DNA of 64,000 bases, taken from sequence record MK373774.1; one strand, 5' to 3'. Made by a program: the position numbers and the translations under genes. This document shows, piece by piece, positions 10,582 through 39,450 of this stretch (positions are counted from its first letter, which is position 1; each line of letters begins with the position of its first letter). The stretch comes from Escherichia phage vB_EcoM_WFL6982. The notes below the pieces were generated by a model. That model ran no database searches. It had not been told where the DNA came from and saw only the letters and a list, made by a program, of their open reading frames with translations.

Positions 10582-10621
10582 ACGATAGGAAGATAATAAC
10601 ATGTCTTCCTATCGTTGTACA
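10582..10621 (-). promoter_or_regulatory. Early-type promoter inside a 12-bp perfect inverted repeat
   Basis: Minus strand: TGTACA (-35-like), arm ACGATAGGAAGA, extended -10 ATGTTATTAT, arm TCTTCCTATCGT, then SD and ATG of ORF 10322..10561. Approximate coordinates. Confidence 0.5.
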
Positions 10622-10624
10622 TTA

Positions 10625-10825
10625 TTAACCGAACTTTTTAGCGCCTTTCCAGCCTTCGTACATAACTGCACAAGTCAGTAGTACAGCGTGCTGGCATTCT
10701 TTGTATTTGTAAATCCAGAACCAGCGTAAGAAGTCTTCATCCTCAACGCCGTTGAGTTTCATATTGGCAAAGAATTCGGCACGTTCTTCACGAAGCTTTT
10801 GCGATAACATAGATTCAGGATTCAT
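10625..10825 (-). CDS. Hypothetical protein (66 aa)
   Basis: Track ORF. Confidence 0.4.
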   Translation of the reverse strand: MNPESMLSQKLREERAEFFANMKLNGVEDEDFLRWFWIYKYKECQHAVLLTCAVMYEGWKGAKKFG

Positions 10826-10956
10826 TTTGTGTTCCAGGCCCCATTTTCATCGATGAACTTAATCCAGTCATTTACAGACCATTTAGTTGTATCACCCTTT
10901 GGATTAACATTTAAAGTATATAATCCCTGCTTAAAAAGCATTCGTTTGATATTCAT
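10822..10956 (-). CDS. Small hypothetical protein
   Basis: Track ORF 10822..11049 overlaps the next ORF; an internal ATG (MNIKRMLFKQGLY...) with GAGGAAA SD would give a 44-aa product without overlap. Confidence 0.3.
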   Translation of the reverse strand: MNIKRMLFKQGLYTLNVNPKGDTTKWSVNDWIKFIDENGAWNTK

Positions 10957-10963
10957 AATTTCC

Positions 10964-11284
10964 TCAACTGTAACGATAACATTCGTTAGCTTTACGTTTG
11001 GCTTCAGTATGAGAAGTATTATAATCATACTCTTCTTTACTGTAAACATCTTTTTTCAACTTACGAACTTCTTTGCGGAGTTGTCGATTCATTTCATTCT
11101 TGACTTCAGAATCAACGCCTTTCATACGTTTCCATTTATCTGAGCGGAAAATGTTTTCAACCATGTCTTTGTGGCTAACACCGTCAGGAGCTTTACGCTT
11201 ACCAAAATAGTCGTAATCGCGAACTTTCAAATCTTTACGACGATATGTTTTACCCATAAGTACCTCAGAGGTTGATTGATACAA
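10964..11284 (-). CDS. Hypothetical basic protein (Lys/Arg-rich)
   Basis: Track ORF (TTG start as given; an internal ATG is also possible). Confidence 0.4.
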   Translation of the reverse strand: MYQSTSEVLMGKTYRRKDLKVRDYDYFGKRKAPDGVSHKDMVENIFRSDKWKRMKGVDSEVKNEMNRQLRKEVRKLKKDVYSKEEYDYNTSHTEAKRKANECYRYS

Positions 11285-11513
11285 CGCGTTTGATAAAATT
11301 CACTTCACTTACTGAAAGGTCTTTAAGACCGATTGATTCTAAACGCTGAGTAAGCGTCAACATCGGGATATAATCCCAATGAGTTTTATTTGCTTGATAA
11401 GTACGAACGCCATTAGCAATTTCAACATGCAAATCGGAAATGGTAACGAATACCAGACGCTCGTCATTAACTTTAAGGGTTAGAACAACTTTCTTTGAAT
11501 CTAAACTAATCAT
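11265..11513 (-). CDS. Hypothetical protein (82 aa)
   Basis: Track ORF. Confidence 0.4.
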   Translation of the reverse strand: MISLDSKKVVLTLKVNDERLVFVTISDLHVEIANGVRTYQANKTHWDYIPMLTLTQRLESIGLKDLSVSEVNFIKRVVSINL

Positions 11514-11854
11514 GGCTTAATTTCCTTCGCAATTGAACAGAAGATACCACGGTCACAAAGCATTTCACCAATTTCTGGATATTTGATTGAACGATACCAA
11601 ACATCCAGGCTTGAAACTCTGGTTATCTGTACGGCATTACCATTGACAGAATAGTACTGGTCAACCTTAATTTCTTTATCTTCAATTGTCATTTTGTTTT
11701 CCTCTATAGCAGATGGTTTAATCTTAACATATCTATCGAGGATGTAAACTGTTTTATGAAAATATTTTTTGATTTGAGAGGGGCACAAGGAGATAGTGAA
11801 GTGAAGATTCCAATGGATTATATTAGAAATGAGATAAAGAAGACCAGGCGGCAC
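11510..11854 (-). CDS. Hypothetical protein (114 aa)
   Basis: Track ORF upstream of the nrdH-like gene. Confidence 0.45.
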   Translation of the reverse strand: MPPGLLYLISNIIHWNLHFTISLCPSQIKKYFHKTVYILDRYVKIKPSAIEENKMTIEDKEIKVDQYYSVNGNAVQITRVSSLDVWYRSIKYPEIGEMLCDRGIFCSIAKEIKP

Positions 11855-11858
11855 CTGG

Positions 11859-12182
11859 TCAATCTTCTATGATATCAGAGTCATATCCTAATGAAATCAA
11901 GGACTTTTTAAACTCTGCAATATTCTTTTGTTTCTTATCATTTAAAAATATGACAGGATAACGAATATTAAGTGAAGTGAATCCTGCACGTTTAGCAAGA
12001 GATACGATTAAAGGACGGTCATATTCAATCTTACCATTATTAGTGAGGACTTTATAAAATGTATAAGGAGCATTGAGCTCCTTTAAAAGTTTTGTAACAG
12101 TATAACATCCTGGACAACGTCCAACTTCTTCAGGGATGCCATAAATTTCAATCTTGTTCTTTAAGTTCGAGTTTTGTTCCAC
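11859..12182 (-). CDS. nrdH: Glutaredoxin/thioredoxin-like redoxin (NrdH-like)
   Basis: C-terminal ~100 aa of track ORF 11859..12311 carries a CPGC redox motif (KIEIYGIPEEVGRCPGCY...); the long N-terminal extension overlaps the upstream ORF, so a GTG/ATT start near 12182 is assumed. Start uncertain. Confidence 0.5.
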   Translation of the reverse strand: MEQNSNLKNKIEIYGIPEEVGRCPGCYTVTKLLKELNAPYTFYKVLTNNGKIEYDRPLIVSLAKRAGFTSLNIRYPVIFLNDKKQKNIAEFKKSLISLGYDSDIIED

Positions 12183-12465
12183 GAGAAATAATTCCTTGGT
12201 AAGCCCAATAAGGAGGATTAACAGAATCCTCACCAGAGTTTTCTTCAGGAAAATAAACCTGGATAACGAAGCCGGATTCATCAAAGGTAAAATAAACCGT
12301 AGGCAGTTCACCTAACAAATCGGCACGAGCGTTGATTTCTTCGAGGTCTTGTTCACGTCCAGCCCAGAAGCTTGGGTTCAGACTACATTCATAGAAATAA
12401 TAGTCATTACCGAACATATCAAAACCATTCCAACTCTCTACTACATACCGCTCAAAACTAATCAT
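12148..12465 (-). CDS. Hypothetical protein (105 aa)
   Basis: Track ORF. Confidence 0.4.
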   Translation of the reverse strand: MISFERYVVESWNGFDMFGNDYYFYECSLNPSFWAGREQDLEEINARADLLGELPTVYFTFDESGFVIQVYFPEENSGEDSVNPPYWAYQGIISRGTKLELKEQD

Positions 12466-17832: not shown

Positions 17833-18137
17833 TATAATGTTCTCTCAAATTTGTGGAAGCATTTACGGCATTTCAATTTCAAGTTATCAGTTGTCCAGTT
17901 AACCAGTTGGACTTGGATAGTTCCACATTCCGGGCATGGATGTTTTGCTGCCGATTTAGCAGCATTTTCACGTCGTTCAACCATTTTCATTATTTCGTTC
18001 CATGCCGGAGGAACAAACTCTTCTTCACCGTGGATTTTATCTCGCTGAACAAATTCAATCTTTGAACTATCGTCAATAAACTTAACCAAGCCATGATTAG
18101 TGCTCATATCAATATCCTCTAAAAGACGTAGTTTCAT
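17832..18137 (-). CDS. Zinc-ribbon protein (101 aa)
   Basis: C-terminal CPEC ... CRKC pair. Confidence 0.45.
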   Translation of the reverse strand: MKLRLLEDIDMSTNHGLVKFIDDSSKIEFVQRDKIHGEEEFVPPAWNEIMKMVERRENAAKSAAKHPCPECGTIQVQLVNWTTDNLKLKCRKCFHKFERTL

Positions 18138-19087
18138 TATAACACCTCAATGGCATTTCGTAAACCATCCGCTTTCGCATTCAGAGCTTTTAACGATTTA
18201 GTTTGTTCTGCAATCTGGGCTTCGACTTCTTTCAGACGAGATTTGAGGTATTCACGTTCTTCAGCCATGATATCAACCTTTTCTGCTTTAGGTTCTTTAA
18301 TAAGCTTAGGTTTATACGTATTAGGGTTCTTCAGCTTAATTCGGGTACGAGAACTGTATAACATTGAACCGTTATCTTCGGATTCGTCGAACGTTTCAAC
18401 AACATCCATAGTCTCTAACAATGTAATAAGTTTATAAGACAATGAACGAACGGTTTTGTTATGCTTATTAATTTCTTCAGCTTTCATGGTACCGAGATTA
18501 CGTGAGTAGTAATAAGGAACCTGGATATCAATTGATAATGATGCGTTACCATTACCAGTTGGTTTGAATACTGCAGTAACCCAATCTTTAACATGAACTT
18601 TATTTGTACGACCATCACCGCCCGTGAATAATTTACGAGAATGTTTAAAAAGCATATTCACTTGGTTATTGAATTCACAAGCAAATTTATCAGCAAATTT
18701 AGTTTCAGGAATTGTAGATAACCAATCAGCCAAATGAGTCTTTTTAACATCGTTAATAATAGTGAATTCAACCAAATCAGTTTTAGATGTCACAGATTTA
18801 ATAAAGCTCGGTTTCATAAAGTTTTTAATGTTATCGCGAGCTACAGTAGAAGATAATAAACGAGAACGTTTGAACCATTGAAGCAACGTCCCTAATGAAT
18901 GAGAATATGCATTTTGAGTATCTTTACAGATATGATTTTCTTGGTCTGTGTATGTACCAAAATCGCGAAGAATACCACTTACTACATCTCGGTGTGGAAC
19001 ATCAAATCCTAGTGCGCCAGTAGCGCGCTGAGCATGAACGTTAGCGATAAGGCCGGCAAAGTATTCAATGTAATGTGAACGTGTCAT
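18137..19087 (-). CDS. Hypothetical protein with C-terminal coiled coil (316 aa)
   Basis: Track ORF; C-terminal heptad-like EEREYLKSRLKEVEAQIAEQTKSLKALNAKADGLRNAIEVL. Confidence 0.5.
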   Translation of the reverse strand: MTRSHYIEYFAGLIANVHAQRATGALGFDVPHRDVVSGILRDFGTYTDQENHICKDTQNAYSHSLGTLLQWFKRSRLLSSTVARDNIKNFMKPSFIKSVTSKTDLVEFTIINDVKKTHLADWLSTIPETKFADKFACEFNNQVNMLFKHSRKLFTGGDGRTNKVHVKDWVTAVFKPTGNGNASLSIDIQVPYYYSRNLGTMKAEEINKHNKTVRSLSYKLITLLETMDVVETFDESEDNGSMLYSSRTRIKLKNPNTYKPKLIKEPKAEKVDIMAEEREYLKSRLKEVEAQIAEQTKSLKALNAKADGLRNAIEVL

Positions 19088-20730: not shown

Positions 20731-20757
20731 GTTTTACCTCCAGTAGTTGATAGGTCT

Positions 20758-24593: not shown

Positions 24594-24595
24594 AT

Positions 24596-29330: not shown

Positions 29331-29692
29331 TATAGACTCTCAGTAAAGGTACGAGCGATAACGTCACGCTGCTGTCCCGGAGTCAGAGAGTTAAAGCGAA
29401 CTGCATAACCGGATACACGGATGGTCAACTGCGGATATTTTTCTGGATGCTTAACTGCATCTTCCAGAGTTTCACGACGCAGAACATTAACGTTCAGGTG
29501 TTGACCACCTTCAATTTTAACTTTAGGTTGATGTTCAATTTCAATTTCACGGGCATTCAAACCGTAGAAAATTTCCGGGTCTACAATAGCGTCTTCTTTA
29601 AAAGTCTTAGAGACAATAATCCGGGCTTGAGTACCGTCTTCAAAATAAATAGTGCCTTTATGTGCACCTTCAAGAATTTGATATGCTTTCAT
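29330..29692 (-). CDS. Autonomous glycyl-radical cofactor (GrcA/YfiD-like)
   Basis: C-terminal [59 protein letters not shown] is near-identical to E. coli GrcA including the RVSGYAV glycyl-radical site. Confidence 0.85.
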
Positions 29693-29698
29693 ATAACC

Positions 29699-30007
29699 TC
29701 AATTAGAAAATAAATTTATCCAAGATTTTTCTTTAATCAAAAATGGGTCGGAATTAAACGCCATTAAACTTTGAGTGATTAATCCCTTAAATGGCCCATC
29801 AATAAATTCCATTTTGAAATGCGGAATACTAGTCATCAACCGTGCATTAGGAGCAGTACAAAGAACCTGCTGCCCTGCGAACGGACCTTTAGTCAAACGG
29901 TATCGTTTAGGTTTAAAATGGTAAATCTCGTAATTTTTTACAAGGGCCCTTTTATTGCATACTGGGCTGTTATAACAATATTCAAAAACTTCAATAGTGG
30001 TCATCAT
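29699..30007 (-). CDS. Hypothetical protein (102 aa)
   Basis: Track ORF. Confidence 0.45.
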   Translation of the reverse strand: MMTTIEVFEYCYNSPVCNKRALVKNYEIYHFKPKRYRLTKGPFAGQQVLCTAPNARLMTSIPHFKMEFIDGPFKGLITQSLMAFNSDPFLIKEKSWINLFSN

Positions 30008-30543
30008 TGCATTCCAATCACAAAAAATTGAGGACGAGCATTACCGCCGATGCAATATTTGCTTTTGCAACAGTGTTGGACTGTTTTAATATGTACATTG
30101 TAAATCTTATCCATATCAGGAGCTTTAATAGGCTCGTCAATTATATACAGAATACGAGAAAGCGTTAATCCACGGAATTTAGAACCTTCATTGCCAATAA
30201 AACTACGAACAGAATCAGTAAATAAACGGAATCGAATATCGTCGCTAGAATAACGAGAAAATTCTTTTTCAATGTTGCCGGCAGAAATTTTAGCATAAGC
30301 CGAAGTATTAGAAAGAACAATAACTGTTCCACCATCATACAGCCAATTAACAGCAAAATTAGTTACTGCGGTCGATTTACCTGATTGTCTGCCACCGTCT
30401 AAACGAAGTGTACAGTACTGCTTGAGTACGTCTTCAAATGGTGGGACATAACCATTCTTACAAATTTCTTCTACTCTAGCATCAGAATGGTGTGTAAAAG
30501 CATTCATCAGGGATAGATAAGGACCAGTTAAAAATGTTCTCAT
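30004..30543 (-). CDS. Small P-loop NTPase (~179 aa)
   Basis: Track ORF 30004..30579; ATG at M13 (MRTFLTGPY...). Walker A GGRQSGKST, Walker B-like ILYIIDEP. Confidence 0.5.
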   Translation of the reverse strand: MRTFLTGPYLSLMNAFTHHSDARVEEICKNGYVPPFEDVLKQYCTLRLDGGRQSGKSTAVTNFAVNWLYDGGTVIVLSNTSAYAKISAGNIEKEFSRYSSDDIRFRLFTDSVRSFIGNEGSKFRGLTLSRILYIIDEPIKAPDMDKIYNVHIKTVQHCCKSKYCIGGNARPQFFVIGMQ

Positions 30544-30715
30544 ATTATTTCTCTTAAGGTTTGGACCATTCCGTGGCACATGTTAGGTCCTTCGACTCGC
30601 TATGTAAACCCATTACCGCATTGCGCTCGACCTTATTACAGGTTGGAAAAGGTACATCACTCAGAGGACTCGACGTTCATGAGGAGAGGTTGCGTTTCCC
30701 TTTATTAGGCAAGAA

Positions 30716-31045
30716 TTATACTCTAGGCTTTTGAGCTTGTTTGGTATTGGATTCCCATGCGGCTTTGGTAATTTTGTTAGCGGCATAACCAAAGGCATTA
30801 GATAGAACACCTTTAGAGTTGAATACATCCAATCCAATAAGTACACCGGCTGTGTTAAATTTAGGAGCAAAGTACGCATTAGTTTTAGAAAGAACTTTTT
30901 TCAATTCAGGGTCTTGAACCAAGCCATCAAAAACGCCTTTACTATTTACTTTGTATGTTACTTTGGGATTTTTACCTTCTTCGATAGCAGCTTTCTGTTC
31001 CGCAGATAATGTAACTTCAGTGATAAACTCCTGATATGTTTTCAT
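30716..31045 (-). CDS. Internal protein (capsid-targeted, IPII/IPIII-like)
   Basis: N-terminus MKTYQEFITEV matches the T4 capsid targeting sequence; small, Lys-rich. Confidence 0.6.
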   Translation of the reverse strand: MKTYQEFITEVTLSAEQKAAIEEGKNPKVTYKVNSKGVFDGLVQDPELKKVLSKTNAYFAPKFNTAGVLIGLDVFNSKGVLSNAFGYAANKITKAAWESNTKQAQKPRV

Positions 31046-31075
31046 TTTTGTTTCCTTGTTTGTTTTGATAGAGTA

Positions 31076-31105
31076 ATTATACCATATTAATACTTAAGCG
31101 TAAAC
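31076..31105 (-). promoter_or_regulatory. T4 early-type promoter (GTTTAC, 18 bp, TATAAT)
   Basis: Minus strand GTTTACGCTTAAGTATTAATATGG-TATAAT-TACTCTATCAAAAC upstream of the internal protein gene. Approximate coordinates. Confidence 0.5.
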
Positions 31106-31108
31106 AAT

Positions 31109-31363
31109 TTAAGCTTTACCGCCAGAAATAATTCCGAAGTTGTTAAAATCATATCCAATATCGTCAACATCTACTTTAGGACTTGCTACAACATAAGCAA
31201 TTTCACTACGTTTTGCATAGGTGTTGATTTCTTTACCATCGCCACCTAAGAAAGAATACCCATTACGTTTTAATGAGCCAAAGTCTTCCGCATCACCAAT
31301 GAAAGCTTTAACTTTAAATTTGGGGTCTTTGGCATCTGCTTCAATGATAAATTCTTGATACAT
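31109..31363 (-). CDS. Internal protein-like (CTS-like N-terminus)
   Basis: N-terminus MYQEFIIEA resembles the capsid targeting sequence; 84 aa. Confidence 0.45.
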   Translation of the reverse strand: MYQEFIIEADAKDPKFKVKAFIGDAEDFGSLKRNGYSFLGGDGKEINTYAKRSEIAYVVASPKVDVDDIGYDFNNFGIISGGKA

Positions 31364-31375
31364 TTTCGTTTTTCC

Positions 31376-31789
31376 TTAGTAAATTGATTTACCATAGTAT
31401 TTGTACCAAGTCGGACGTTGAGCAATTTTTTCATCTAAGCGTGCTTGACTTATCGCAATGGACGCTTCGGACGGGACGTAATTATTACGAAATTCGGCAG
31501 GGATGTCGGAAATATCCTGGACAGTCGTGTCCTTGATTTTGAAACCACGTTTCAAGCATTCAGCGATTAGCTCGTTTTGACGTAAACGTAAAAATTCGAG
31601 TTTGTCGTAAAAGAATGTTACGTGACCTGTGCCTAAGATAAATGTTGGAGAGATTTTAAAATCCTTTACACGTTTACCGTTTTGAACATGTTTACGGACT
31701 GCACCAAATACGCGTGGTAATTCACGATACTCAGCCATAAGATGTTGGTCGGCCAGTTCAGAAACAAGTGTTAAATTGATACGGGTCAT
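31376..31789 (-). CDS. denV: Endonuclease V (pyrimidine dimer DNA glycosylase)
   Basis: From internal [70 protein letters not shown]..., near-identical to T4 endonuclease V. Confidence 0.95.
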
Positions 31790-31847
31790 AATTTCCTCCA
31801 AGTAGTTGATGAATGTATAGTATCAAAACCCTTGGAGGAAGTAAACA

Positions 31848-32129
31848 CTATTTTTCTGAAGCGCCTGAAATATATTTTTCAAGACGTTGTTTCATCAGCG
31901 AGCCGTTCTTAGCGATTTCTTCTGGTTTATCGCACATACGCAACAAGGCTTCAAGCTTAGCGATATCGCTGGTACGTTCAAATTTGCGAGTATCTATCTT
32001 ACTAGCAAGTTCAGAAATACGTGCTAATAGACTTTCAGCTTCAACCAAAGCTGCACCTAGCTTAGTTGCAAATGTGTCAGTAGCTTCGTTAAGAATAGAT
32101 TCTGATAAAAATTCACTATATGTTTTCAT
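31848..32129 (-). CDS. Internal protein (capsid-targeted)
   Basis: From internal [19 protein letters not shown]... (CTS-like); overlaps the lysozyme stop. Confidence 0.5.
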
Positions 32130-32614
32130 ATATACGCTTTCCAAGTTCCTGTTTTAAATGTTGAGATTACGCGTTTCGCGCGATTAGGTGTCTGACGATA
32201 CCATTTAGATTGGGCTAGATTTACTGCCGCTTCATCCCAACGTTTCTGTTGAAGCATACGAAGAGAATTAGTAAAACCGGCGACTCCTGCTACACCCATT
32301 TGGAAGACCATATTGACCAATGCACACCGACGAACTGCATCTAAAGAATCATATACCGGTTTAAGTTTAGCATTACCCAAGATTCCGCGGACGGCTTTAT
32401 CAACGTCTTCATTAAATAGCTTTTCAGCCTCATCAAGGGTAATTGTACCGTTGCATTTACGACCGATCATTCTGTCAAGTTCAGCTTTAGCTACGGCTAA
32501 AGACGGGTTCTTTGTTACTAAATGGCCTATGCCAATAGTCCAAAAGCCTTCGGTGTCTTTGTATAAAGTCAGTCTAAGACCTTCGTCATTACGAAGCATT
32601 TCAAATATATTCAT
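32126..32614 (-). CDS. e: Lysozyme (endolysin e)
   Basis: From internal [82 protein letters not shown]...; unmistakably T4 lysozyme. Confidence 0.97.
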
Positions 32615-32648
32615 AATACCTCCCACGTTTATAGGAGGTATTTATTAC

Positions 32649-33077
32649 TTATAGGAGTGTAGTGAGCACCTTATATAATGATTTGCCCATTACATATTCC
32701 CATTGAGAAGGTTTAATTAAAGCGAATGCATCAAATTCAGGAATCTGTCGTCCGTCTGGGAATGTATGATAGGAATTACAAACACTGTTTCTGAATTGCT
32801 CGTGCTCTACAGGGATGGTATATAGGAACAGATGAATATTCTTATTGTCTGAGTAATGATGTTCACCTAGGTCTTTCAGGAAGGCAGGGTCATATTGTGT
32901 AAACCCAGTTTCTTCTTCGCATTCACGAAGAGCTTCAAGGCCACACATAGGCTCGATACCAGTAATGTGAACTTGATTAATCTGATACTCTACATCTTCT
33001 AACTGAGCGAAAACATAACGACGTTCTGCTGCACAACCAGGTTTAGCTTTACCGAAACGTTTATTCAAAGTAGTCAT
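32649..33077 (-). CDS. nudE: Nudix hydrolase NudE-like
   Basis: Track ORF 32649..33095 (GTG); ATG at M7 with GGAGAT SD. Nudix-box-like REcEEETGF; T4 e.1 position. Confidence 0.6.
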   Translation of the reverse strand: MTTLNKRFGKAKPGCAAERRYVFAQLEDVEYQINQVHITGIEPMCGLEALRECEEETGFTQYDPAFLKDLGEHHYSDNKNIHLFLYTIPVEHEQFRNSVCNSYHTFPDGRQIPEFDAFALIKPSQWEYVMGKSLYKVLTTLL

Positions 33078-33115
33078 TTTTATATCTCCATTCACTCATT
33101 TGTTTTGATAGGTCT

Positions 33116-33145
33116 ATAGTATCAACAACTACAGACCTTGTAAAC
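33116..33145 (-). promoter_or_regulatory. T4 early-type promoter
   Basis: Minus strand GTTTACA-AGGTCTGTAGTTGTTGA-TACTAT-AGACCTATCAAAAC; AGGTCT/AGACCT arms flank the -10. Approximate coordinates. Confidence 0.5.
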
Positions 33146-33157
33146 TGTTTTGTGAAA

Positions 33158-34114
33158 TTATTTGAAAGGTTTTACCATATGAAAGTTTTGTTTGAAACGC
33201 TTGACGTAATCGTCGTGTCCTAAGCTTTGGTACATACTTACTACTTTGCTATAATTTTCCCAAGCGAACTCACGGAACCATCCTGATGTGATTGATGTAC
33301 AGACCTTTTCAAGGGCCATCATAAAACTATCACGTGGATGGATTTTAAAGTCGTTAGGAATCTGTGAACGTTCAAGAGCTAATACACAAGCTTCTTCATA
33401 TACACCGGCTAATTTAACCATTTCTGGTAATGATTCGAACTTCTCGCGTGATGTCATAACTTCTGAGCCTTCTTTCATATAAAACTTATAAGCAGGCTGG
33501 TCAGTTAGTGCAATGGCTTCATGGATAGTATCATGGTCATACGTATAGATGTCATCTTTAAAGAACGCACTTTTAGAAGTGTCAAGAACTGGGTGAGCAT
33601 AATTCAAGGTTTCTTTCTGGCGTTTCAGCATAATTTCAGTAAGTTCATCGTTCAGTGTAACACCTTTACCACGAAGATACTGAATATGGTTCATAGTCTT
33701 TAAAAAGAATGGATTATTTTTCTTGAAACGATGAGACATCTTAATTGCAAGACATATCTCAGGAGTTGCCCAGTAAAACCCGTTCAAACGGTCTTTAGTC
33801 AAATTTTTCTTGGCGTATTTTAAAAGGTCATAAGAAGACGTGAAATCTTCAGGAGTGAGTTCACCGACTAATTCACGGACATTAGTGATTGCCGGAACAA
33901 TATATGCTTCAAAATGAGTTTCGCGTCCATTATGGAAGCATTTGAAAACTTGGACATCAGGGTTATCTTGGTGAACATATACACCCATCATTTGATTTTT
34001 GAATGTATTCCAAGAACCTTGGTCCGCAATAAAGTCCCAATCACTATTTTTAATAGCGCTAGAATCAATAAGACCGTGATAGTGAAGTGCACGAGAACCA
34101 ATAACTAACATCAT
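33158..34114 (-). CDS. Hypothetical protein (318 aa), weak nucleotidyltransferase-like N-terminal motif
   Basis: N-terminal LVIGSRALHYHGLIDSSAIKNSDWDF loosely resembles a GS...DxD NTase signature with atypical spacing; otherwise unrecognised. Confidence 0.45.
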   Translation of the reverse strand: MMLVIGSRALHYHGLIDSSAIKNSDWDFIADQGSWNTFKNQMMGVYVHQDNPDVQVFKCFHNGRETHFEAYIVPAITNVRELVGELTPEDFTSSYDLLKYAKKNLTKDRLNGFYWATPEICLAIKMSHRFKKNNPFFLKTMNHIQYLRGKGVTLNDELTEIMLKRQKETLNYAHPVLDTSKSAFFKDDIYTYDHDTIHEAIALTDQPAYKFYMKEGSEVMTSREKFESLPEMVKLAGVYEEACVLALERSQIPNDFKIHPRDSFMMALEKVCTSITSGWFREFAWENYSKVVSMYQSLGHDDYVKRFKQNFHMVKPFK

Positions 34115-34142
34115 AATATTTTCCTCGGATTAATTCATTAAC

Positions 34143-34394
34143 TTAAATTTCACGACATGCGATATTATATTCATCCCAGAGGTCATCATGTGAAGCCTCT
34201 ACCAATGGAACGATTGTACCGTTTATGTCTTCATTATAAGGGCAAATTGTACAGTGCGCATCTTCGAATCGGATGCCTTTGTGTTCAGATTTTTTATAAC
34301 GCATATCGAATATCTTTGCAAACTTTTCACGAGTAATGGTTTTACCAACCACTTTGGTTCCGATACTTTCGTAATAAATCATTGTGGACTCCAT
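34143..34394 (-). CDS. Hypothetical protein (83 aa)
   Basis: Track ORF; ATG start downstream of an early promoter. Confidence 0.45.
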   Translation of the reverse strand: MESTMIYYESIGTKVVGKTITREKFAKIFDMRYKKSEHKGIRFEDAHCTICPYNEDINGTIVPLVEASHDDLWDEYNIACREI

Positions 34395-34410
34395 TTGGTT
34401 TGATAGGACT

Positions 34411-34440
34411 ACTATAACATAGCCCTATCTTGTTGTAAAC
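34411..34440 (-). promoter_or_regulatory. T4 early-type promoter with 10-bp inverted repeat
   Basis: Minus strand GTTTACAACAA-GATAGGGCTA-TGTTATAG-TAGTCCTATC-AAACC. Approximate coordinates. Confidence 0.5.
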
Positions 34441-34444
34441 TGTT

Positions 34445-34642
34445 TTAGCAAGAATAACTAGATGATACCCAGCCTTGAACAGTGATACTATTGTGGGATA
34501 ATGAGATCGCGTCCTGGAGATTCAGACCTGCGTTATCTTCAATCCATAATGTAACTTCTTCGCGTTCTTCTGTTGCAATTTGGAACAGGTTTTCCAGAGC
34601 AGCTACTGTCGTACGTACAGCACAATCTAATTCACGAGACAT
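34445..34642 (-). CDS. Small protein, member 3 of the WVxSSxxC family (65 aa)
   Basis: Ends ...ITVQGWVSSSYSC; AAGGAAACAAT-ATG ribosome-site spacing shared with the two upstream paralogs. Confidence 0.5.
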   Translation of the reverse strand: MSRELDCAVRTTVAALENLFQIATEEREEVTLWIEDNAGLNLQDAISLSHNSITVQGWVSSSYSC

Positions 34643-34651
34643 ATTGTTTCC

Positions 34652-34924
34652 TTAGCAAGTGTGAGAAGATGCGACCCAACCACCAGTTTCGAGGCTCAGG
34701 TTGTAGTCGTATTGGTAAACGTCAGCCCATTCAGCATAGCCGTTTTTTGTACAACGTTCAAGATCGGCTTTAAGATGTCCGGGTGAATGATAGGTTCCAC
34801 CCATACCATAAGCTGGATACAAGACGAATGTTGTGTTTTGTTTATCAGCAATTTCTTTGGCAGCCTCAATAGCTGCATAAATTTTTGCTACAGCTTCAGC
34901 CAGTTCGGTTTGTTCTTTAGACAT
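34652..34924 (-). CDS. Small protein, member 2 of the WVxSSxxC family (90 aa)
   Basis: Ends ...ETGGWVASSHTC; shares a YGxGxTYxxPG block with member 1. Confidence 0.5.
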   Translation of the reverse strand: MSKEQTELAEAVAKIYAAIEAAKEIADKQNTTFVLYPAYGMGGTYHSPGHLKADLERCTKNGYAEWADVYQYDYNLSLETGGWVASSHTC

Positions 34925-34933
34925 AATGATTCC

Positions 34934-35239
34934 TTAGCACAACGCAGAAGACGAAACCCAAGCACCTTCAGTAATAACGTAACCATTACCTTCACGCTTA
35001 ACATCGCCACCATTATTTTCAATTTCATCTTTCATCCACTGGGATACGATTTCACCCTTAGGATAATAAGTACGACCGCTACCATAATCACCTACAGAAA
35101 ATGATACGGCATATTGGTCTGCGATCTTTGTTGCTTCTTCTTCGATACGTTCAGCTTGATTCAGAAGTTTATAAATTGCATCTGAAGCGGATTTGGCATC
35201 ATTAAACTCTGGTACTTTAATTTCAATAATCTTACTCAT
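34934..35239 (-). CDS. Small protein, member 1 of the WVxSSxxC family (101 aa)
   Basis: Ends ...TEGAWVSSSALC; start overlaps the upstream membrane ORF stop. Confidence 0.5.
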   Translation of the reverse strand: MSKIIEIKVPEFNDAKSASDAIYKLLNQAERIEEEATKIADQYAVSFSVGDYGSGRTYYPKGEIVSQWMKDEIENNGGDVKREGNGYVITEGAWVSSSALC

Positions 35240-35595
35240 TTTCTACATTCCTTAATAAAGTTTTCGATTGTTTCATTTTCACGTCTAGCTAGGAGTTCAT
35301 TATAACTAATCATTTGAGAAGCGTAAACCTTTTTATTTTTCTTGTTATGGTTTATAAAATCGTAGTAAAAATAGACTACAGTACAAAAGGATGCGATGGA
35401 TGCAAAGGCTTGGGTATACCGTAAGTCCTGCCATTGGTCTGTGAATCCACCAGTGTTCCCTATAAATCCTAACACAACGCCATCAATAAGAAATCCAACT
35501 AATCCAAAGGCAAATCCCATGCCGGCGCTCATGATAAAAATTAAAATATTCTCACCAAGAGAAGGCCATACGGTTAAGAGTTGAGGCTTTTGCAT
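35236..35595 (-). CDS. Membrane protein (119 aa)
   Basis: Hydrophobic helices ILIFIMSAGMGFAFGLVGFLIDGVVLGFIG and AFASIASFCTVVYFYY. Confidence 0.5.
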   Translation of the reverse strand: MQKPQLLTVWPSLGENILIFIMSAGMGFAFGLVGFLIDGVVLGFIGNTGGFTDQWQDLRYTQAFASIASFCTVVYFYYDFINHNKKNKKVYASQMISYNELLARRENETIENFIKECRK

Positions 35596-35933
35596 CTTAT
35601 TTCCTTAACGAATTCCATAGCTTCTTCATATTCATACTTTTTAACAGCTTCATCATACTGAGCTTGGGCTTTTGCGCACTGAACTTTCCACTCGCGAACT
35701 CGAGCTCTGTGATGACGGCCTTGGTGCCAATATCCTGCCCAATTAATAGGCATTAATAAAAATGGTACAATAAGTGGGGCGACGAACATTAATGAAAATG
35801 CTGCATCAGACGATATAACTTTACTAGAATCTAAAACAGCTCCTATAATCATAAAGATTAAAAATGCTAAAGCTAAAATAGGGCCAAATAGTACTTCGTT
35901 TGGGATTAATTTACGTTTGTATTCGTATGCCAA
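35574..35933 (-). CDS. Membrane protein (up to 119 aa; start uncertain)
   Basis: Track ORF begins with TTG inside the U-run of the upstream terminator; first in-frame ATG is at residue 28 with no SD. Hydrophobic helices and a basic HQGRHHRARVREWK segment. Confidence 0.4.
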   Translation of the reverse strand: MAYEYKRKLIPNEVLFGPILALAFLIFMIIGAVLDSSKVISSDAAFSLMFVAPLIVPFLLMPINWAGYWHQGRHHRARVREWKVQCAKAQAQYDEAVKKYEYEEAMEFVKEIRCKSLNS

Positions 35934-35959
35934 AAAGCCCCAACCTTTCGGAAGGGGCT
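35931..35959 (-). terminator. Rho-independent terminator (GC-rich stem, GNRA loop, U5)
   Basis: Minus strand AGCCCC-TT-CC-GAAA-GG-TT-GGGGCT followed by TTTTTG, ~50 nt downstream of the tRNA-like element. Approximate coordinates. Confidence 0.6.
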
Positions 35960-36010
35960 ATGCCTTGCGGCAACCTTGTCGGGGTTCCACCTGCTAAGGC
36001 AAGTGTTTGT

Positions 36011-36102
36011 ACGAAACGCCGGGATTTGAACCCGGTTATTAAGTAGTTGACGCTACTCAATATTTTTAAAAGGCCATATCTCGACCATATCCGAACGTTC
36101 CG
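36011..36102 (-). ncRNA. tRNA-like RNA element (canonical T-arm and 7-bp acceptor stem, no canonical anticodon arm)
   Basis: Minus strand has T-arm CCGGG-TTCAAAT-CCCGG, then 3' acceptor CGTTTCG pairing with 5' CGGAACG 92 nt upstream; the interior cannot be folded into a standard D/anticodon cloverleaf. Approximate coordinates. Confidence 0.4.
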
Positions 36103-36270
36103 TCAAAAACGCTACTCGGCTTACGGCAAAGATATTTCCTCGAATCGATAATTCTGTGCGCCGTTTCTGCTGTGATGTAAGGGGATATTAACAAATCGTA
36201 AAGATTTATTAAGACCAGTCCTTACTCAGGGAACATCAGTCCGACGACTTACCGGTAGCGACCCGGCTTC

Positions 36271-36666
36271 TTATTTTGACATATCATCAATTTGCTCTCG
36301 ACGCCGACGCCATAGATTAATCGCTTCATTAACACATTCGGCGTTTGGTATATGACGGCAATAATATAATGATTCGCGTTTCTGGAACCGATGTTGCAAC
36401 GGGATTTCGTTTAAAAGGTCTTTACGGTCAAAGTATTCAAAACTAGTTAACCCAGAACGATTTTTAAGAAACTTCCAATGTCCGAATTCATTTTGAAAAT
36501 AGACATAATCAGCATGCTGATACAGCGAATTAATTAACCTATCGGAAATAACTGTTTCACGTTCGTTAAAATAAAATGTTAAGTCATGAACTACCAGATA
36601 AATATTGCCTTTCATATTTTCCTCACTTAAAGTTGGTGCCTCTAGAAAGATTTGAACTCTCACCAT
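36271..36666 (-). CDS. Hypothetical protein (131 aa)
   Basis: Track ORF; start may be the internal ATG (MKGNIYLVVHDL...). Confidence 0.45.
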   Translation of the reverse strand: MVRVQIFLEAPTLSEENMKGNIYLVVHDLTFYFNERETVISDRLINSLYQHADYVYFQNEFGHWKFLKNRSGLTSFEYFDRKDLLNEIPLQHRFQKRESLYYCRHIPNAECVNEAINLWRRRREQIDDMSK

Positions 36667-36694
36667 TAACCTTAGAATGATTATATGCTATCCA

Positions 36695-37366
36695 TTACAC
36701 TATAGAGGCAATTAAATTATTTACAATATCTTCTTTATAAACTTCAGCATAATGAAGTTCATATATTTCCCATCCTAATGATTTTATAATATCATGGCGT
36801 TCTTTATAATAAGGGGCCAAAATCTTTTTCTTAGGATTGGAGTAATGTTGGTTTCCATTAACTTCAATAATAATCTTTTTATCTATTAAAGCAATATCCG
36901 TGCAATACGCTCGGTTTTTAACCGGTTGGTATTCTTCAATAAATGAAATTCCATTTTCTATTAATTTAGATTTCAAAAATTCACAAGGCACAGATTTAAA
37001 TTTTGTATTTTTCTTCCAAGGATGTTTATCGGGGTTTTCATTCAACCATTTTTTCCGAGCATTAGATATTTTTATTCTAGCTTCCTCAGAGTGTTCTCTA
37101 CCTAATGAAGCGGCTGACAATTTTTGTCTAGTCTCTTCCGAAATTACTACAGGAACACCAGTCTTTTTAGATACAACATACTGGTTTAAATTACCTGAAG
37201 CTATACGTGCTTTATTCATTGCTGCAATGGCTGATTTAGAACTTTCTTTATACAATTCCAATTTAGGGTTGGATTTACACCATCTAGTGTGGTTAGCCAT
37301 CCATCCTTTAGGTTTATTAGAAATATCAAATTCCATATTACAATGTTTACAAATGCTCATTACCAA
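36695..37366 (-). CDS. Putative endonuclease: N-terminal zinc ribbon plus C-terminal DUF559/Vsr-like nuclease domain
   Basis: N-terminal CKHC...HTRWC; C-terminal DIALIDKKIIIEVNGNQHY...RHDIIKSLGWEIYEL fits the D...EhxG.QH...R...GW pattern of DUF559-type nucleases. Lies next to the tRNA genes. Confidence 0.45.
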   Translation of the reverse strand: MVMSICKHCNMEFDISNKPKGWMANHTRWCKSNPKLELYKESSKSAIAAMNKARIASGNLNQYVVSKKTGVPVVISEETRQKLSAASLGREHSEEARIKISNARKKWLNENPDKHPWKKNTKFKSVPCEFLKSKLIENGISFIEEYQPVKNRAYCTDIALIDKKIIIEVNGNQHYSNPKKKILAPYYKERHDIIKSLGWEIYELHYAEVYKEDIVNNLIASIV

Positions 37367-37434
37367 TTATCTCCTATAAAATATAGGAGTATTTATTATT
37401 TGGATAGAGCACTTAATTTACTTCGTTTAAATTA

Positions 37435-37506
37435 CTGGCGCACTTGGACTCGAACCAAGATAAAGGAGTTAACAGCTCCCCGTAATAACCTTTATACGAT
37501 GCACCA
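37435..37506 (-). tRNA. tRNA-Asn (anticodon GTT)
   Basis: Hand-folded cloverleaf: acceptor TGGTGCA/TGCGCCA, anticodon stem GGGAG/CTCCT with loop CTGTTAA, T-arm CTTGG-TTCGAGT-CCAAG; no encoded CCA. Approximate coordinates. Confidence 0.7.
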
Positions 37507-37512
37507 TTTGTT

Positions 37513-37587
37513 TGGTGACCCTGGCTGGTTTCGATCCAGCTACCTATCAGTTATGAGCTGACAGCTCTCCCATTGAGCTACAGGGCC
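37513..37587 (-). tRNA. tRNA with CAT anticodon (Met, or Ile if lysidine-modified)
   Basis: Hand-folded: acceptor GGCCCTG/CAGGGTC, D-arm GCTC-AATGGGA-GAGC, anticodon stem GTCAG/CTGAT with loop CTCATAA, T-arm GCTGG-ATCGAAA-CCAGC, encoded CCA. Approximate coordinates. Confidence 0.75.
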
Positions 37588-37666
37588 TAAATAACTTTCT
37601 ATTATGAAAGGCACTTTAGAGCACCTTTGGTAATAGAGGGTATGAATTAATAATAACACATAATTC

Positions 37667-38182
37667 TTAAAGCAAATCAATCATTTTAACAGTTGGCAAA
37701 ACGATTTCTTCTTCAATATAAGCAAATTCAACACATTCAACTACACGCAAGAAATCATAATCATAATATTCAGAAGCATGACCAAGAATATCAATGAGAC
37801 CTTCTGATACTAAATATCCATTCTCATGGAACAGGTCAAATACACGCGATTCGTCTTCTTCAGATTTATTACCAAGGTCGACTTCAATATCAAAGACCTT
37901 TTTAATGAATTCTGGATAAAGCTGGTCTGAGAACAATCCTTCAACCAAGTATTCATAGATTAAAAGCGAACAATCACTGAATAGTGTATTACCACAGTAA
38001 TGTTCAGCTTTAGTGCTAGAATGACGACTCTTAAATTTCTTCAAGAGATATTTAAACTGTTGGAGCTCATGCTCTTCCACTTCAAACAATGTTTTGGTTT
38101 TATAGTTGTCACCATCATTTTCATAGGTAGTGACATCAATTACGTAACCCTTAGGAATTGTACTGCCTAAACAAATATTCAT
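37667..38182 (-). CDS. Hypothetical acidic protein (171 aa)
   Basis: Track ORF. Confidence 0.45.
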   Translation of the reverse strand: MNICLGSTIPKGYVIDVTTYENDGDNYKTKTLFEVEEHELQQFKYLLKKFKSRHSSTKAEHYCGNTLFSDCSLLIYEYLVEGLFSDQLYPEFIKKVFDIEVDLGNKSEEDESRVFDLFHENGYLVSEGLIDILGHASEYYDYDFLRVVECVEFAYIEEEIVLPTVKMIDLL

Positions 38183-38186
38183 TTAC

Positions 38187-38477
38187 TCACCGTACCATAT
38201 TAATGTAATTATATTCAATGCAACGTAATTTCAAAGGATTCTTGAAAATATCATATTCAAGAGGACCTTTTTCTGTTTCAATAAAGAAATCAAAGTTCAC
38301 ACTATTAAATTTGCGGTCTTCCCAAAGTAATTTAACCTGTGAAGATGAACGGTCGACGTAAACCTTTTCAACTTCAAAGTGGGTCAAAATACCATAGTAA
38401 TCGACTAGTGCTTTAGCTGCAGCTCGGTCGCTTTCATATCCATTCTCAACGGATTTTACCTTAGCATAAAGAATCAT
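38187..38477 (-). CDS. Hypothetical protein (96 aa)
   Basis: Track ORF. Confidence 0.45.
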   Translation of the reverse strand: MILYAKVKSVENGYESDRAAAKALVDYYGILTHFEVEKVYVDRSSSQVKLLWEDRKFNSVNFDFFIETEKGPLEYDIFKNPLKLRCIEYNYINMVR

Positions 38478-38860
38478 GAATGTTCCACCATTTCAAAGGT
38501 ATGAGCATCAACAATATGATACCAGTCAAAATTTTCTTCTGCGTTTTTATAAATTTCGCGAAGAGCTTCAACAGTTTTTCCTGTAGCAACAAGGTCGTCA
38601 ATACCGCCAAGAGGATAACAGTCACCAGCAAACAGAAGGAAATTAATAGTTTCTGTAGGTTCTGTAGGTTCTGGATGCAGAACACCATTATCATCTACTA
38701 CTTCAAAGAATGTGTAAGAAGGAGTACAAGTTTTAATCCAGGCCCATGCTTGAGCTGCTGAATCAAACGGATTACGGAATAAACGACAATCCGGGTCTTT
38801 AGAAGGATTTGCTTCAAAATCCGCATATATGTGATATTTCATTTTACTCACCTTTTGCAA
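38474..38860 (-). CDS. Hypothetical protein (128 aa) with short PTE repeat
   Basis: Track ORF; contains HPEPTEPTET encoded by a 9-bp tandem DNA repeat near 38640-38665. Confidence 0.45.
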   Translation of the reverse strand: MQKVSKMKYHIYADFEANPSKDPDCRLFRNPFDSAAQAWAWIKTCTPSYTFFEVVDDNGVLHPEPTEPTETINFLLFAGDCYPLGGIDDLVATGKTVEALREIYKNAEENFDWYHIVDAHTFEMVEHS

Positions 38861-39029
38861 TTTTATCCATAACGATAGCGATTAAGCCGATTAGAAATGC
38901 TACTACCAATGAGATAGAGTTTTCAGTTGTTGTCAGTAGTCCACAAATGAATCCTACAAACATCGAAAAACTAAAAGCCATTGAAGCAATTACTACAGCA
39001 ACATTACGAATCAGTTCAGCGCGTTTCAT
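38844..39029 (-). CDS. Small membrane protein (~61 aa)
   Basis: Track ORF 38844..39041; second ATG has a TGGAGAA SD. Single TM helix VAVVIASMAFSFSMFVGFICGLL. Confidence 0.45.
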   Translation of the reverse strand: MKRAELIRNVAVVIASMAFSFSMFVGFICGLLTTTENSISLVVAFLIGLIAIVMDKIAKGE

Positions 39030-39065
39030 TTTATTCTCCATTTACTCATTTGATTTGATAGGACT

Positions 39066-39095
39066 ACTATAACATAGTCCTATCAGCATGTAAAC
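39066..39095 (-). promoter_or_regulatory. T4 early-type promoter centred in a 10-bp perfect inverted repeat
   Basis: Minus strand GTTTACATGCT-GATAGGACTA-TGTTATAG-TAGTCCTATC-AAATCAAA, directly after the ipI-like stop. Approximate coordinates. Confidence 0.55.
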
Positions 39096-39098
39096 TAC

Positions 39099-39386
39099 TT
39101 ACAGAAGAGTTTTTGCAATAATTTTAAGCTGAGCTACAGAAATATGCTTAGCTTTAAACAGTGCAGTCTCTTCGGCCGGAGAGATAACAATAGTAGCGCC
39201 GTCTTTCTTAGCAGACCATCCATCCCCTAAGTAAACAGTACCTTTTACTTCTTCGCCGTCAACCAGGCTAATCATTGGTTTACCCTCACGTCCTTTATTT
39301 GCTTTAATAACTTCGGAAGTAAGGGTTGCTTCGGTCAGAGTAGAAACGTTAGCAAAAGGTGATATAAATTCTTTATAGGATTTCAT
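39099..39386 (-). CDS. Internal protein (capsid-targeted, IPI-like position)
   Basis: N-terminus MKSYKEFISPFANVSTLTEATLTSE (CTS-like); 95 aa; adjacent to 57B as ipI is in T4. Confidence 0.55.
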   Translation of the reverse strand: MKSYKEFISPFANVSTLTEATLTSEVIKANKGREGKPMISLVDGEEVKGTVYLGDGWSAKKDGATIVISPAEETALFKAKHISVAQLKIIAKTLL

Positions 39387-39420
39387 TTTATTTCCTTGAG
39401 GTTATTTATTTGATAGGATG

Positions 39421-39450
39421 ATAGTATCACACCATCATCCTTATGTAAAC
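39421..39450 (-). promoter_or_regulatory. T4 early-type promoter (GTTTAC, 18 bp, TACTAT) with GGATGA/TCATCC arms
   Basis: Minus strand GTTTACATAA-GGATGATGG-TGTGATACTA-TCATCCTATCA upstream of the ipI-like gene. Approximate coordinates. Confidence 0.5.

Follow-up and report, generated by a model that had tools for sequence, protein, structure and literature searches.

Spacers of many T4-type early promoters in an RB69-like phage are complementary to the downstream leader and may form hairpins in read-through RNA

Promoter-early stem-loop (PeSL) cassettes were defined in phages RB49 and phi1, where the stem-loop was read as a terminator or attenuator and the whole cassette as a recombination module (Arbiol 2010, PMC2839356), and they have since been extended to T4/PST and KVP40/nt-1 (Comeau 2014, PMC4122927, where the IP-locus elements of Repoila 1994 are also cited). 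Another kind of hairpin silences the long transcripts of T4 e, soc, 49 and I-TevI: an internal late promoter follows its 5' arm, and for gene e the effect is 100-fold (PMC3014915). Here we analyse the early promoters in a 64,000-nucleotide stretch of Escherichia phage vB_EcoM_WFL6982 (MK373774.1; hereafter the window, numbered from its first letter), many of which carry inverted repeats whose 5' arm is the spacer separating the -35 from the -10 box. The pairing of spacer with downstream sequence is not random, recurs with different arms in other T-even lineages including T4, and in one class of promoters engages the Shine-Dalgarno sequence (SD) of the gene being served. We lean, with some reserve, towards the interpretation that these hairpins exist only in RNA reading through from upstream, and that in this class they would mask the SD there.

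Positions 24000-40000 of the window match Escherichia phage vB_EcoM_WFK (MK373775.1; record coordinate = window coordinate + 32000) at 100% by megablast, that is, a Mosigvirus, an RB69-like T-even phage. The region from 10.5 to 39.5 kb is a minus-strand array of small early genes in the order gene 55 / nrdC region, tk, vs, regB, denV, e, nudE, tRNA cluster, ipI, 57B (gene names taken from the RB69, ATK47 and T4 annotations), and early promoters occupy the ~60-nt gaps between these co-directional genes. The pattern GTTTAC-N14/15-TGN-TAYWRT matches the window 13 times where 0.04 matches are expected, and 12 of these matches fall on the minus strand, in the interval 18136-39450; without the TG requirement, GTTTAC-N17/18-TAYWRT gives 15 matches against 0.51 expected. 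A generic sigma-70 TTGACA/TATAAT scan of the window is not enriched (69 matches, 65 expected), so the enrichment is specific to the T4-type pattern. All sites lie 20-50 nt 5' of an SD and ATG of minus-strand genes (ipI, trna.4, nudE, denV, regB, mobD.2a, nrdC.8, nrdC.10 and others), and in the WFK consensus the region from -62 to -37 is A/T-rich and UP-like, with 'aAaaAAata' abutting GTTTAC. By their composition these are sigma-70-dependent T4-type early promoters, consisting of an UP-like A-tract, GTTTAC, a 17-18 bp spacer, TGn, TAnnnT and a CTATCAA core. An earlier reading of the same letters (the original prediction) had identified them as such, and is borne out by the match counts, by the RB69-like genome and by the 57 early promoters predicted in RB69 (Nolan 2006, PMC1524935); it had also counted at least eleven minus-strand sites, and 12 were found, but 4 of the 12 have a TACTAT -10 in place of the form TAT(A/T)(A/G)T that it gave. 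The sole plus-strand match (GTTTAC-N14-TGC-TACTGT, 55222-55250) falls among the late genes and is probably fortuitous or without function.

In their -35, spacer length, TGn and A-tracts these promoters agree with the published early promoters of T4 (consensus of Wilkens and Rueger and of Miller 2003, as cited in PMC2988021) and RB69, and they share with the latter the C-rich positions -3 to -1, remarked on by Nolan et al. in a numbering that places T at -7. The T4 regB promoter has been described as a typical early promoter (PMC3014915). In the published descriptions, as far as the texts were accessible to us, the spacer is taken to be uninformative and the account stops at the start site; complementarity between spacer and leader and a CTATCAA at +1 are not discussed. 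In the window, TAYWRT-NNN-YYTATCRAA, in which a downstream element is fused to the -10, has 8 matches against 0.03 expected, and CCTATCAAAAC with at most one mismatch has 8 against 1.9. The original prediction was thus right about the element, which it had placed after most of the promoters, but it is present at only about half of the ~16. The consensus 3' of the -10 reads AgaCcTATCaAaaa in WFK and a..aCTATCAAcTac in the T4 type. Because the CTATCAA core common to WFK and T4 is found with or without a dyad, we regard it as a discriminator or initial-transcript feature of T-even early promoters; it is the spacer that adapts to the core, which itself stands outside any dyad motif.

Two dyad geometries emerged when WFK was scanned over record positions 1-96000 and 120001-164590. 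In type A the 3' part of the spacer holds the 5' arm, the first base of the 3' arm falls somewhere from the last two bases of the -10 to about +4, and the loop of 6-18 nt contains the -10. Type B has a 5' arm that begins 0-1 nt past GTTTAC with an anti-Shine-Dalgarno run (TTCTCC..., TTCCTCC...), the 3' arm contains an SD with GGAG or GAGG and ends 3-9 nt before the ATG, and the loops are 15-30 nt long (mean 22). The dyads had been presented as one class centred on the -10; type A does hug the -10, but the right arm at regB begins 8 nt past it and the classes are two. When the 16 window promoters were folded as RNA from -35 to ATG and compared with dinucleotide shuffles, eight had z<=-3 (39426, 39071, 34416, 33121, 31822, 28528, 24915, 10598), three lay between -1.5 and -2 (25368, 20763, 11726), and five were unstructured, with no dyad (31081, 22520, 22240, 18141, 10298); a helix with its 5' arm between the two promoter boxes is thus present in 11/16. 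The features are the following.

39415-39450, minus strand: early promoter of the ipI homologue; -35 at 39450-39445, -10 TACTAT at 39426-39421; type A hairpin 39441-39415, core AGGATGAT/ATCATCCT; z = -3.13.
39056-39095, minus strand: early promoter of the trna.4 homologue; -10 TATAGT at 39071-39066; type A hairpin 39085-39056, TGATAGGACTA/TAGTCCTATCA, 11 bp exact, p=0.000; z = -3.93; a copy of a ~63-bp repeated cassette (repeat families D3/D4).
34402-34440, minus strand: early promoter of an RB69ORF135c-like gene; -10 at 34416-34411; type A hairpin 34429-34402, GATAGGgCTA/TAGtCCTATC, one G.U; z = -3.54; a further copy of the D3/D4 cassette.
33110-33145, minus strand: early promoter 5' of nudE; -10 TACTAT at 33121-33116; type A hairpin 33138-33110, GGTCTgTAG/CTAtAGACC, one G.U; z = -3.27; an indel junction relative to RB69 lies beside it at 33139.
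31793-31846, minus strand: denV early promoter; -10 at 31822-31817; type B, TTCCTCCAAG right after GTTTAC pairing with the SD CTTGGAGGAA, which ends 3 nt 5' of the ATG; 10 bp, p=0.000; z = -4.10.
28501-28551, minus strand: regB early promoter; -35 at 28551-28546, -10 TACTAT at 28528-28523; type B, TTCTCCTCTAGTTG/CAACTAGAGGAGAA, 14 bp exact; z = -4.93.
25337-25391, minus strand: early promoter of the mobD.2a homologue; -10 TATAGT at 25368-25363; weaker type B, TTCTCCTC/GAGGAGAA plus AGGTT/AACCT, 8 bp, p=0.004; z = -1.53; repeat D17; terminator-like hairpin just upstream at 25398-25431, the sole dyad coupled with an upstream terminator.
24899-24939, minus strand: early promoter of a 36-aa mobD.2-like open reading frame (ORF); -10 at 24915-24910; type A hairpin 24930-24899, TTGGTAGGACTA/TAGTCCTATCAA, one G.U; z = -4.64.
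20752-20786, minus strand: nrdC.8 early promoter; -10 TATTAT at 20763-20758; type A, AGGTCTAT/ATAGACCT, 8 bp, p=0.016; z = -1.94.
11700-11749, minus strand: early promoter; -10 TAAGAT at 11726-11721; imperfect type B, TCCTCgATAG/CTATaGAGGA; z = -1.86.
10582-10622, minus strand: promoter-like site with weak -35 ATGTAC and extended -10 TGT TATTAT at 10598-10593; type A, ACGATAGGAAGA/TCTTCCTATCGT, 12 bp perfect; z = -3.87.
31076-31105, minus strand: early promoter without dyad; downstream element TACTCTATCAAAAC; z = -0.48; indel junctions relative to RB69 and ATK47 at 31049/31056.
22235-22263, minus strand: nrdC.10 early promoter without dyad; downstream element AGACCTATCGAAAC; z = +1.02.
22515-22589, minus strand: early promoter without dyad; GTGTAC, -10 at 22520-22515; terminator-like hairpin (an annotated terminator) upstream at 22563-22589; z = -0.38.
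18136-18165, minus strand: early promoter without dyad, within the 5' end of the nrdC.2 homologue as annotated; z = +0.66.

Exact complementarity between the spacer and the sequence after the -10, as originally described, is found at 39066 (11 bp), at 10582-10615 (12 bp) and at regB (14 bp), but 34411 has one G.T. The right arm at regB is, as had also been recognised, the GGAG-containing SD that RegB cleaves. Outside the window, WFK has further type B dyads of 13 bp (record position 7405) and 14 bp (20330). The upstream genes' stop codons lie 0-13 nt 5' of the -35, with TAG overlapping the G of GTTTAC at regB and at 24939. The promoter inside the nrdC.2 homologue (5' end of WFK_00091, annotated start 18137) is a perfect GTTTAC-N18-TATAAT with TG, within 18107-18165; because an in-frame ATG with an SD stands at ~18107, the annotation has probably placed the start 10 codons too early.

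That such repeats might occur at chance frequency in AT-rich DNA was the objection raised with the original prediction, and the shuffled controls do not support it: besides the eight strong folds, 8/35 WFK promoters have a perfect repeat at shuffle p<=0.01, where 0.35 are expected. Two wider samples were used. A set of 99 consists of non-redundant promoter-to-ATG segments from WFK, from T4 52-76 kb, and from 20-kb regB neighbourhoods in IMG/VR, which add at least four further lineages; a larger, noisier set of 249 includes the IMG/VR pattern matches listed and is diluted by chance matches in unrelated contigs. A metagenome scan with a RegB alignment gave 16 loci. In the former, the best helix between spacer and downstream sequence beats spacer shuffles at p<=0.01 in 29 of 99 promoters (1 expected) and at p<=0.05 in 41 (5 expected), and among the 249 listed promoters 48 reach p<=0.01 against 2.5 expected. 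Of these 249 promoters, 45 have anti-SD words within the spacer's first 10 nt, compared with 9.8 +- 3 after shuffling. When each listed spacer is offered its own downstream region or that of another promoter, a score of at least 8 is reached in 22% vs 2.1% of cases, and of at least 10 in 10.8% vs 0.4%. Since swapped partners rarely pair, the complementarity is promoter-specific and therefore no product of the shared consensus; for the same reason there is no shared operator, in agreement with the earlier remark that the arms differ between promoters. An operator for a dimeric repressor was rejected on this ground, there being no common palindromic half-site. Rfam covariance models returned only three tRNAs at gathering score in the window, and no family matching the hairpins.

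The T4 reference early promoters carry the same dyad classes, so that the dyads are no peculiarity of the window:

T4 ipII, type A: TCCTAGAATTGTGA/TCACAATTCTAGGA, 14 bp.
T4 mobD.2, type A: AGTTGACAAGATTA/TAATCTTGTCAACT, 14 bp, unrelated to the arms of the WFK mobD.2-like ORF.
T4 ipI, type A: TGATGAGGTA/TACCTCATCA, with arms unlike those of the WFK ipI homologue.
T4 e.7, type A: 10 bp.
T4 denV, type B: TCTCCTGTAG/CTACAGGAGA.
T4 regB, type B: TTTTCCTCTTGACTG/CAGTTAAGAGGAGAA.
T4 nrdC.8, type B: GTTCCTC/GAGGAAC.

In the RefSeq record of T4, the e.7 promoter (record ~70350) has an ambiguous base N in its 5' arm (ATAGGCTNAT/ATGAGCCTAT), at which pairing predicts C. A third geometry is seen at the T4 nrdC.10 promoter (NC_000866, L036; -10 at record 55360) and at position 19536 of lineage L031, where a perfect 14-nt palindrome, CATAAAGCTTTATG, lies wholly within the spacer; the WFK orthologue at window 22240 is without a helix.

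When orthologous promoters are grouped by homology of the downstream protein, pairing is retained with replaced arms at regB in six lineages, at denV in three to four, and at mobD.2, trna.4 and ipI between WFK and T4. The trna.4 orthologues read ATAGGGT/ACCCTAT in T4 and AGGGTTAT/ATAACCCT in lineage L029, and pairing with the denV SD is kept by other arms, TTCTCCTGTAGATG/CATCTACAGGAGAA, in L028. The geometry itself may change: nrdC.8 is type A in WFK and type B in T4 and in L026 (CTGTTCCTC/GAGGAACAG), regB has the helix GGGCCAT/ATGGCCC in L016, L017 and L048-50, and one gene can thus be type A or type B depending on the lineage. For regB, pairs were counted in nine sequences after left block, GAAA and right block had been joined without gaps, MAFFT having misaligned the 3' arms of whole upstream regions; 13/15 pairs have changed on both sides, and covariation is 0.631 as against 0.272 +- 0.042 in column shuffles (0/500 reach the observed value) and 0.12-0.23 for slid partners. 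In near-identical variants 3.1% of stem positions differ, vs 9.5% of unconstrained neighbours (Fisher p = 9e-5, the sequences being phylogenetically non-independent), the signature of purifying selection on the stems. The stem changes among these close variants comprise eight to G.U (5 distinct events), one to A.C and one that breaks a pair.

Several observations suggest that it is the sense-strand RNA rather than the DNA in which this pairing matters. The T4 regB helix has two G.U pairs, which on the other strand are A.C. In 19/20 type A hairpins the sense RNA is stabler than the antisense RNA (mean -3.0 kcal/mol, Wilcoxon p = 2e-4), an asymmetry that was looked for in promoters without a dyad and not seen there. 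Consensus and Nolan numbering together make the A of ATCAA, 7 nt after the -10, the predicted +1. In every case the 5' arm precedes this position, and the predicted start falls between the arms or within the 3' arm; a promoter's own transcript, if it begins there, therefore cannot form the hairpin, which would be confined to read-through RNA. For type B promoters, the computed mean unpaired probability from SD to AUG falls from 0.76 in the own transcript to 0.29 in read-through RNA; for type A the corresponding values are 0.71 and 0.59.

The explanation that we favour, hairpins of read-through RNA, would run as follows. In some 30-50% of early promoters an otherwise freely varying spacer would be selected to complement sequence 3' of the -10. 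Where the promoter is of type B, the anti-SD arm in the spacer would pair, in read-through mRNA, with the gene's own SD and so occupy the ribosome site, and the gene would be freely translated only from its own immediate-early transcript. The paired SD would probably also be shielded from RegB, which cuts GGAG only when it is single-stranded. RNA structure is known to protect GGAG from RegB, and RegB cuts the SD of its own mRNA (PMC3014915), so the hairpin at regB would shield the read-through copies of that message from the enzyme. The two most distant lineages (L035, L052), in which regB is without the hairpin, have an intrinsic terminator immediately upstream. As an alternative for type B, translation may be coupled instead of fully silenced: the upstream stop lies 0-13 nt 5' of the -35, so that a ribosome terminating there could melt the anti-SD:SD base of the stem. 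The type A hairpins may have other roles: compaction or insulation of an untranslated, promoter-bearing gap against RNase E or Rho loading; a 3' barrier to exonucleases after RegB cleavage at the next SD, or 5' protection after processing; or a non-canonical attenuation of read-through. Three further candidates were rejected. For RNase III sites, stems of 8-14 bp do not reach the necessary length; in a sigma-dependent pause-release hairpin, the paused complex would hold the 3' arm in its RNA:DNA hybrid; and for a terminator on the antisense strand, a T-run is lacking on both strands.

Compared with the described systems, the likeness to PeSL cassettes that the original prediction had pointed out is real and closer than it had claimed. 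The elements are composites of ~60-70 bp between small early genes of hyperplastic regions, repeated and in some cases near indel boundaries between close relatives, and from 5' to 3' they present an upstream stop amid AT-rich sequence, a strong early promoter with a stem-loop between or over its boxes, an SD and an ATG; type A conforms in this to the way PeSLs are structurally defined. PeSLs are also characterised by recombination between cassettes that yields mini-circles. The stems here, however, are AT-rich and cassette-specific and are without U-tracts, whereas those of RB49 and phi1 are G/C-rich and were shown to lower downstream expression. One third of the helices here pair the spacer with the SD, an arrangement not described in the PeSL papers, of which PMC2839356 is without mention of translation or ribosomes; and the stem-loops of T4/PST are described as lying just upstream of the promoter (Comeau 2014, PMC4122927). 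With the hairpins of e, soc, 49 and I-TevI, type B shares an SD that is paired in the long RNA, an internal promoter with a start site, here predicted, 3' of or within the 5' arm, and pairing that is conserved in relatives; type A, with an unpaired probability of 0.59, does not share the paired SD. The promoter here is a sigma-70 early one rather than a gp55 late one, and the timing would be reversed, the gene being translatable at once and masked later or on read-through. Moreover, the 5' arm here is the -35/-10 spacer itself, and many genes would be concerned (regB, denV, nrdC.8 and others). No early-promoter example appears in the T4 review PMC3014915.

Translational coupling through an inhibitory intercistronic hairpin is a general mechanism of bacterial and phage operons. 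The present elements resemble it in the upstream stop close to the -35 and in the anti-SD:SD base of the type B stem, and differ in that the hairpin contains a promoter giving a second, hairpin-free mRNA. A literature search for SD-sequestering hairpins embedded in early promoters found only e, soc, 49, I-Tev, mobE and segB, and Miller 2003 or Repoila 1994 may draw individual hairpins. T4-type early promoters and the cassette concept are, then, already known. In the accessible literature we did not find described a spacer selected to pair with the leader, for which RNA rather than DNA is favoured here, or a class of SD-masking early promoters (regB, denV, nrdC.8 and others) with compensatory change across T-even lineages including T4.

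The most serious rival is the one that the PeSL literature itself offers, in which the stem-loop is a terminator or attenuator of incoming transcription, acting on RNA polymerase, and the cassette is a homology patch for the shuffling of ORFs. We consider this unlikely as the explanation of the dyads, while noting that it overlaps with read-through hairpins, both acting on read-through RNA, and that for type A the two are non-exclusive. Stem-loops between or overlapping the -35 and -10 are the commonest PeSL subclasses, and one of them cut lacZ expression as much as rrnB T1 did (Arbiol 2010, PMC2839356). A 63-bp cassette is common to three window promoters (24915, 34416, 39071) at 78-84% identity, and repeat families D1-D5, with 4-8 copies each, extend over the nrdC-to-57B small-ORF region (20.7-39.5 kb), a repetitiveness typical of PeSLs. 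The edges of 5/10 indel junctions vs RB69, and of 2-3/8 vs ATK47, lie within 30 bp of a cassette when the cassette footprint is ~6%, these being small numbers with events shared between the comparisons; in ATK47 an extra Ip7 gene sits exactly at the 39071 cassette, and the annotation mentions a 43-bp direct repeat flanking IP genes. In lineage L047, regB (2379-2478) carries the cassette of T4 denV (record ~65390), SD helix included, and in L023 denV carries an ipIII-type cassette, GAATTGTGA/TCACAATT. Whole cassettes of promoter, leader and SD helix thus appear to move between non-orthologous genes. The suggestion that the elements mark modular exchange points is supported to this extent, but the other half of the RB69 junctions lie elsewhere and exchange leaves the complementarity of the arms unexplained: recombination between direct repeats requires no inverted repeat, and does not account for arm covariation between differing cassettes. 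Nor do the hairpins look like intrinsic terminators. Type A hairpins average -16 kcal/mol at ~40% GC (stem GC overall 0.40-0.44), and their tails are A-rich and T-poor (1.7 T and 4.0 A in 8 nt; at least 4 T in 3/30 type A and 0/18 type B), so that they are not canonical terminators. Genuine T-run terminator hairpins sit separately upstream of some promoters, at 22563-22589 and 25398-25431, in the classical order of terminator then promoter (22563-22543 and 25431-25386), and the type B arms are specifically an SD and its complement, which termination would not need.

The hairpin at 25398-25431 has a 91% identical copy at 35927-35960; both are 34 nt, G/C-rich and followed by a T-run on the minus strand (TAGCCCCTTCC..GGGGCTTTTTGGCAT). 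The two resemble an intrinsic terminator present in repeated form, and the copy at 25398-25431 abuts the promoter at 25391. Other variable segments lie in the same array. The first ~30 nt of WFK_00118 and WFK_00119 (31016-31048 and 31340-31372) are 80% identical direct repeats, and the 290-bp unit between them, with a small ORF and the promoter at 31081, occurs in WFK but not in ATK47 and is arranged differently in RB69, which would fit deletion or duplication between the repeats. A ~0.9-kb segment in the tRNA cluster (36637-37542), absent from RB69 and ATK47, carries tRNA-Asn and a 221-aa minus-strand ORF (36695-37360) with weak DUF559/RAP matches and a NUMOD3 motif, which looks like a candidate homing endonuclease; T4 has segB at the equivalent place.

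If the symmetry acted instead in the DNA, cruciform extrusion or a symmetry-recognising protein could switch the promoter, serving early shut-off, or the dyads could serve endonuclease VII as sites of cleavage and recombination. The type A arms of 8-14 bp with loops of 6-12 nt, centred near -10 to -12, would make extrusion feasible in supercoiled AT-rich DNA, and the shut-off of early promoters has been described as not understood (PMC3014915, PMC2988021). We nevertheless hold a DNA-level role to be very unlikely. The promoter-specific arms leave no sequence-specific operator, the type B loops of 15-30 nt are poor cruciform substrates, and yet the same gene switches between A and B from lineage to lineage; the wobble pairs of T4 regB, the greater stability of the sense strand and the 8 to 1 preference for G.U over A.C among stem substitutions all point to RNA, against the cruciform that had been considered. 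Less probable still, and in our judgement hardly credible, is that the dyads have no function, having arisen by chance in AT-rich DNA, from self-complementarity of the consensus, or by templated quasi-palindrome mutation, the last of which is a known mutational process in T4. It is true that the inner stem consists partly of consensus bases (CTAT..ATAG; U.G from TG and TATAGT), and that dyads are lacking or lost in many promoters. Chance is excluded, however, by the spacer shuffles, the partner swap and the dinucleotide shuffles, consensus complementarity by the partner swap, and templated mutation would not be expected to put the 3' arm on the SD, to enrich anti-SD words after the -35, or to favour G.U over A.C.

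A number of our own observations weigh against hairpins of read-through RNA as the general explanation. With about half of the promoters lacking a dyad, and orthologues both acquiring and losing one, the feature is not essential. A dyad occurs in 1/20 promoters with an upstream terminator vs 47/229 without, in the direction that read-through would predict but not significantly (p=0.14), and promoter 25368 has terminator and dyad together. Part of the sense-strand asymmetry comes from a U.G closing pair made up of the TG that extends the -10 and the G in TATAGT; as these are consensus bases, the asymmetry is not independent of the promoter consensus. Interior mismatches (G.T 8, A.C 4, other 6 among the 249 listed promoters) do not differ significantly, and the 3:0 ratio of G.T to A.C in the set of 99 is too small to judge. 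The start site, on which the restriction to read-through RNA depends, is inferred rather than mapped. The regB pair counts lean towards structure because the right arms were anchored on their own helix and the loop was replaced. Type A hairpins do not cover the SD and hardly alter its accessibility, which limits a translational mechanism to the type B third of the dyads. Finally, the sole experiment on such stem-loops, in RB49 and phi1, was read as transcription termination (Arbiol 2010, PMC2839356).

Until now the spacer has been regarded as filler, and the associated stem-loops as terminators or as patches for recombination. If spacers have indeed been under selection for pairing with leader or SD, to which the covariation, the purifying selection and the SD-specific class point, regB, denV and other early genes would be under an undescribed post-transcriptional control, with a simple cis-encoded basis for immediate-early as opposed to read-through expression and for sensitivity to RegB. 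A swapped cassette would bring its SD-masking helix with it, as the T4 denV cassette does at regB in L047, and this would explain why promoter, leader and SD move as one module. For annotation and phage engineering, this would mean that deleting or replacing an early promoter may unintentionally mask or unmask the ribosome site downstream. A broader proposal, which we offer tentatively and regard as doubtful, is that throughout the T-even phages, T4 included, the spacer also serves as a riboregulator, carrying an arm antisense to its gene's leader or SD, by which each early cistron would 'know' whether its mRNA began at its own promoter (open, translated, RegB-sensitive) or upstream (folded, masked or only coupled, RegB-resistant). 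Such a general discrimination of transcript origin, if true, could help to explain why many early proteins cease to be made within minutes despite read-through and middle-mode transcription.

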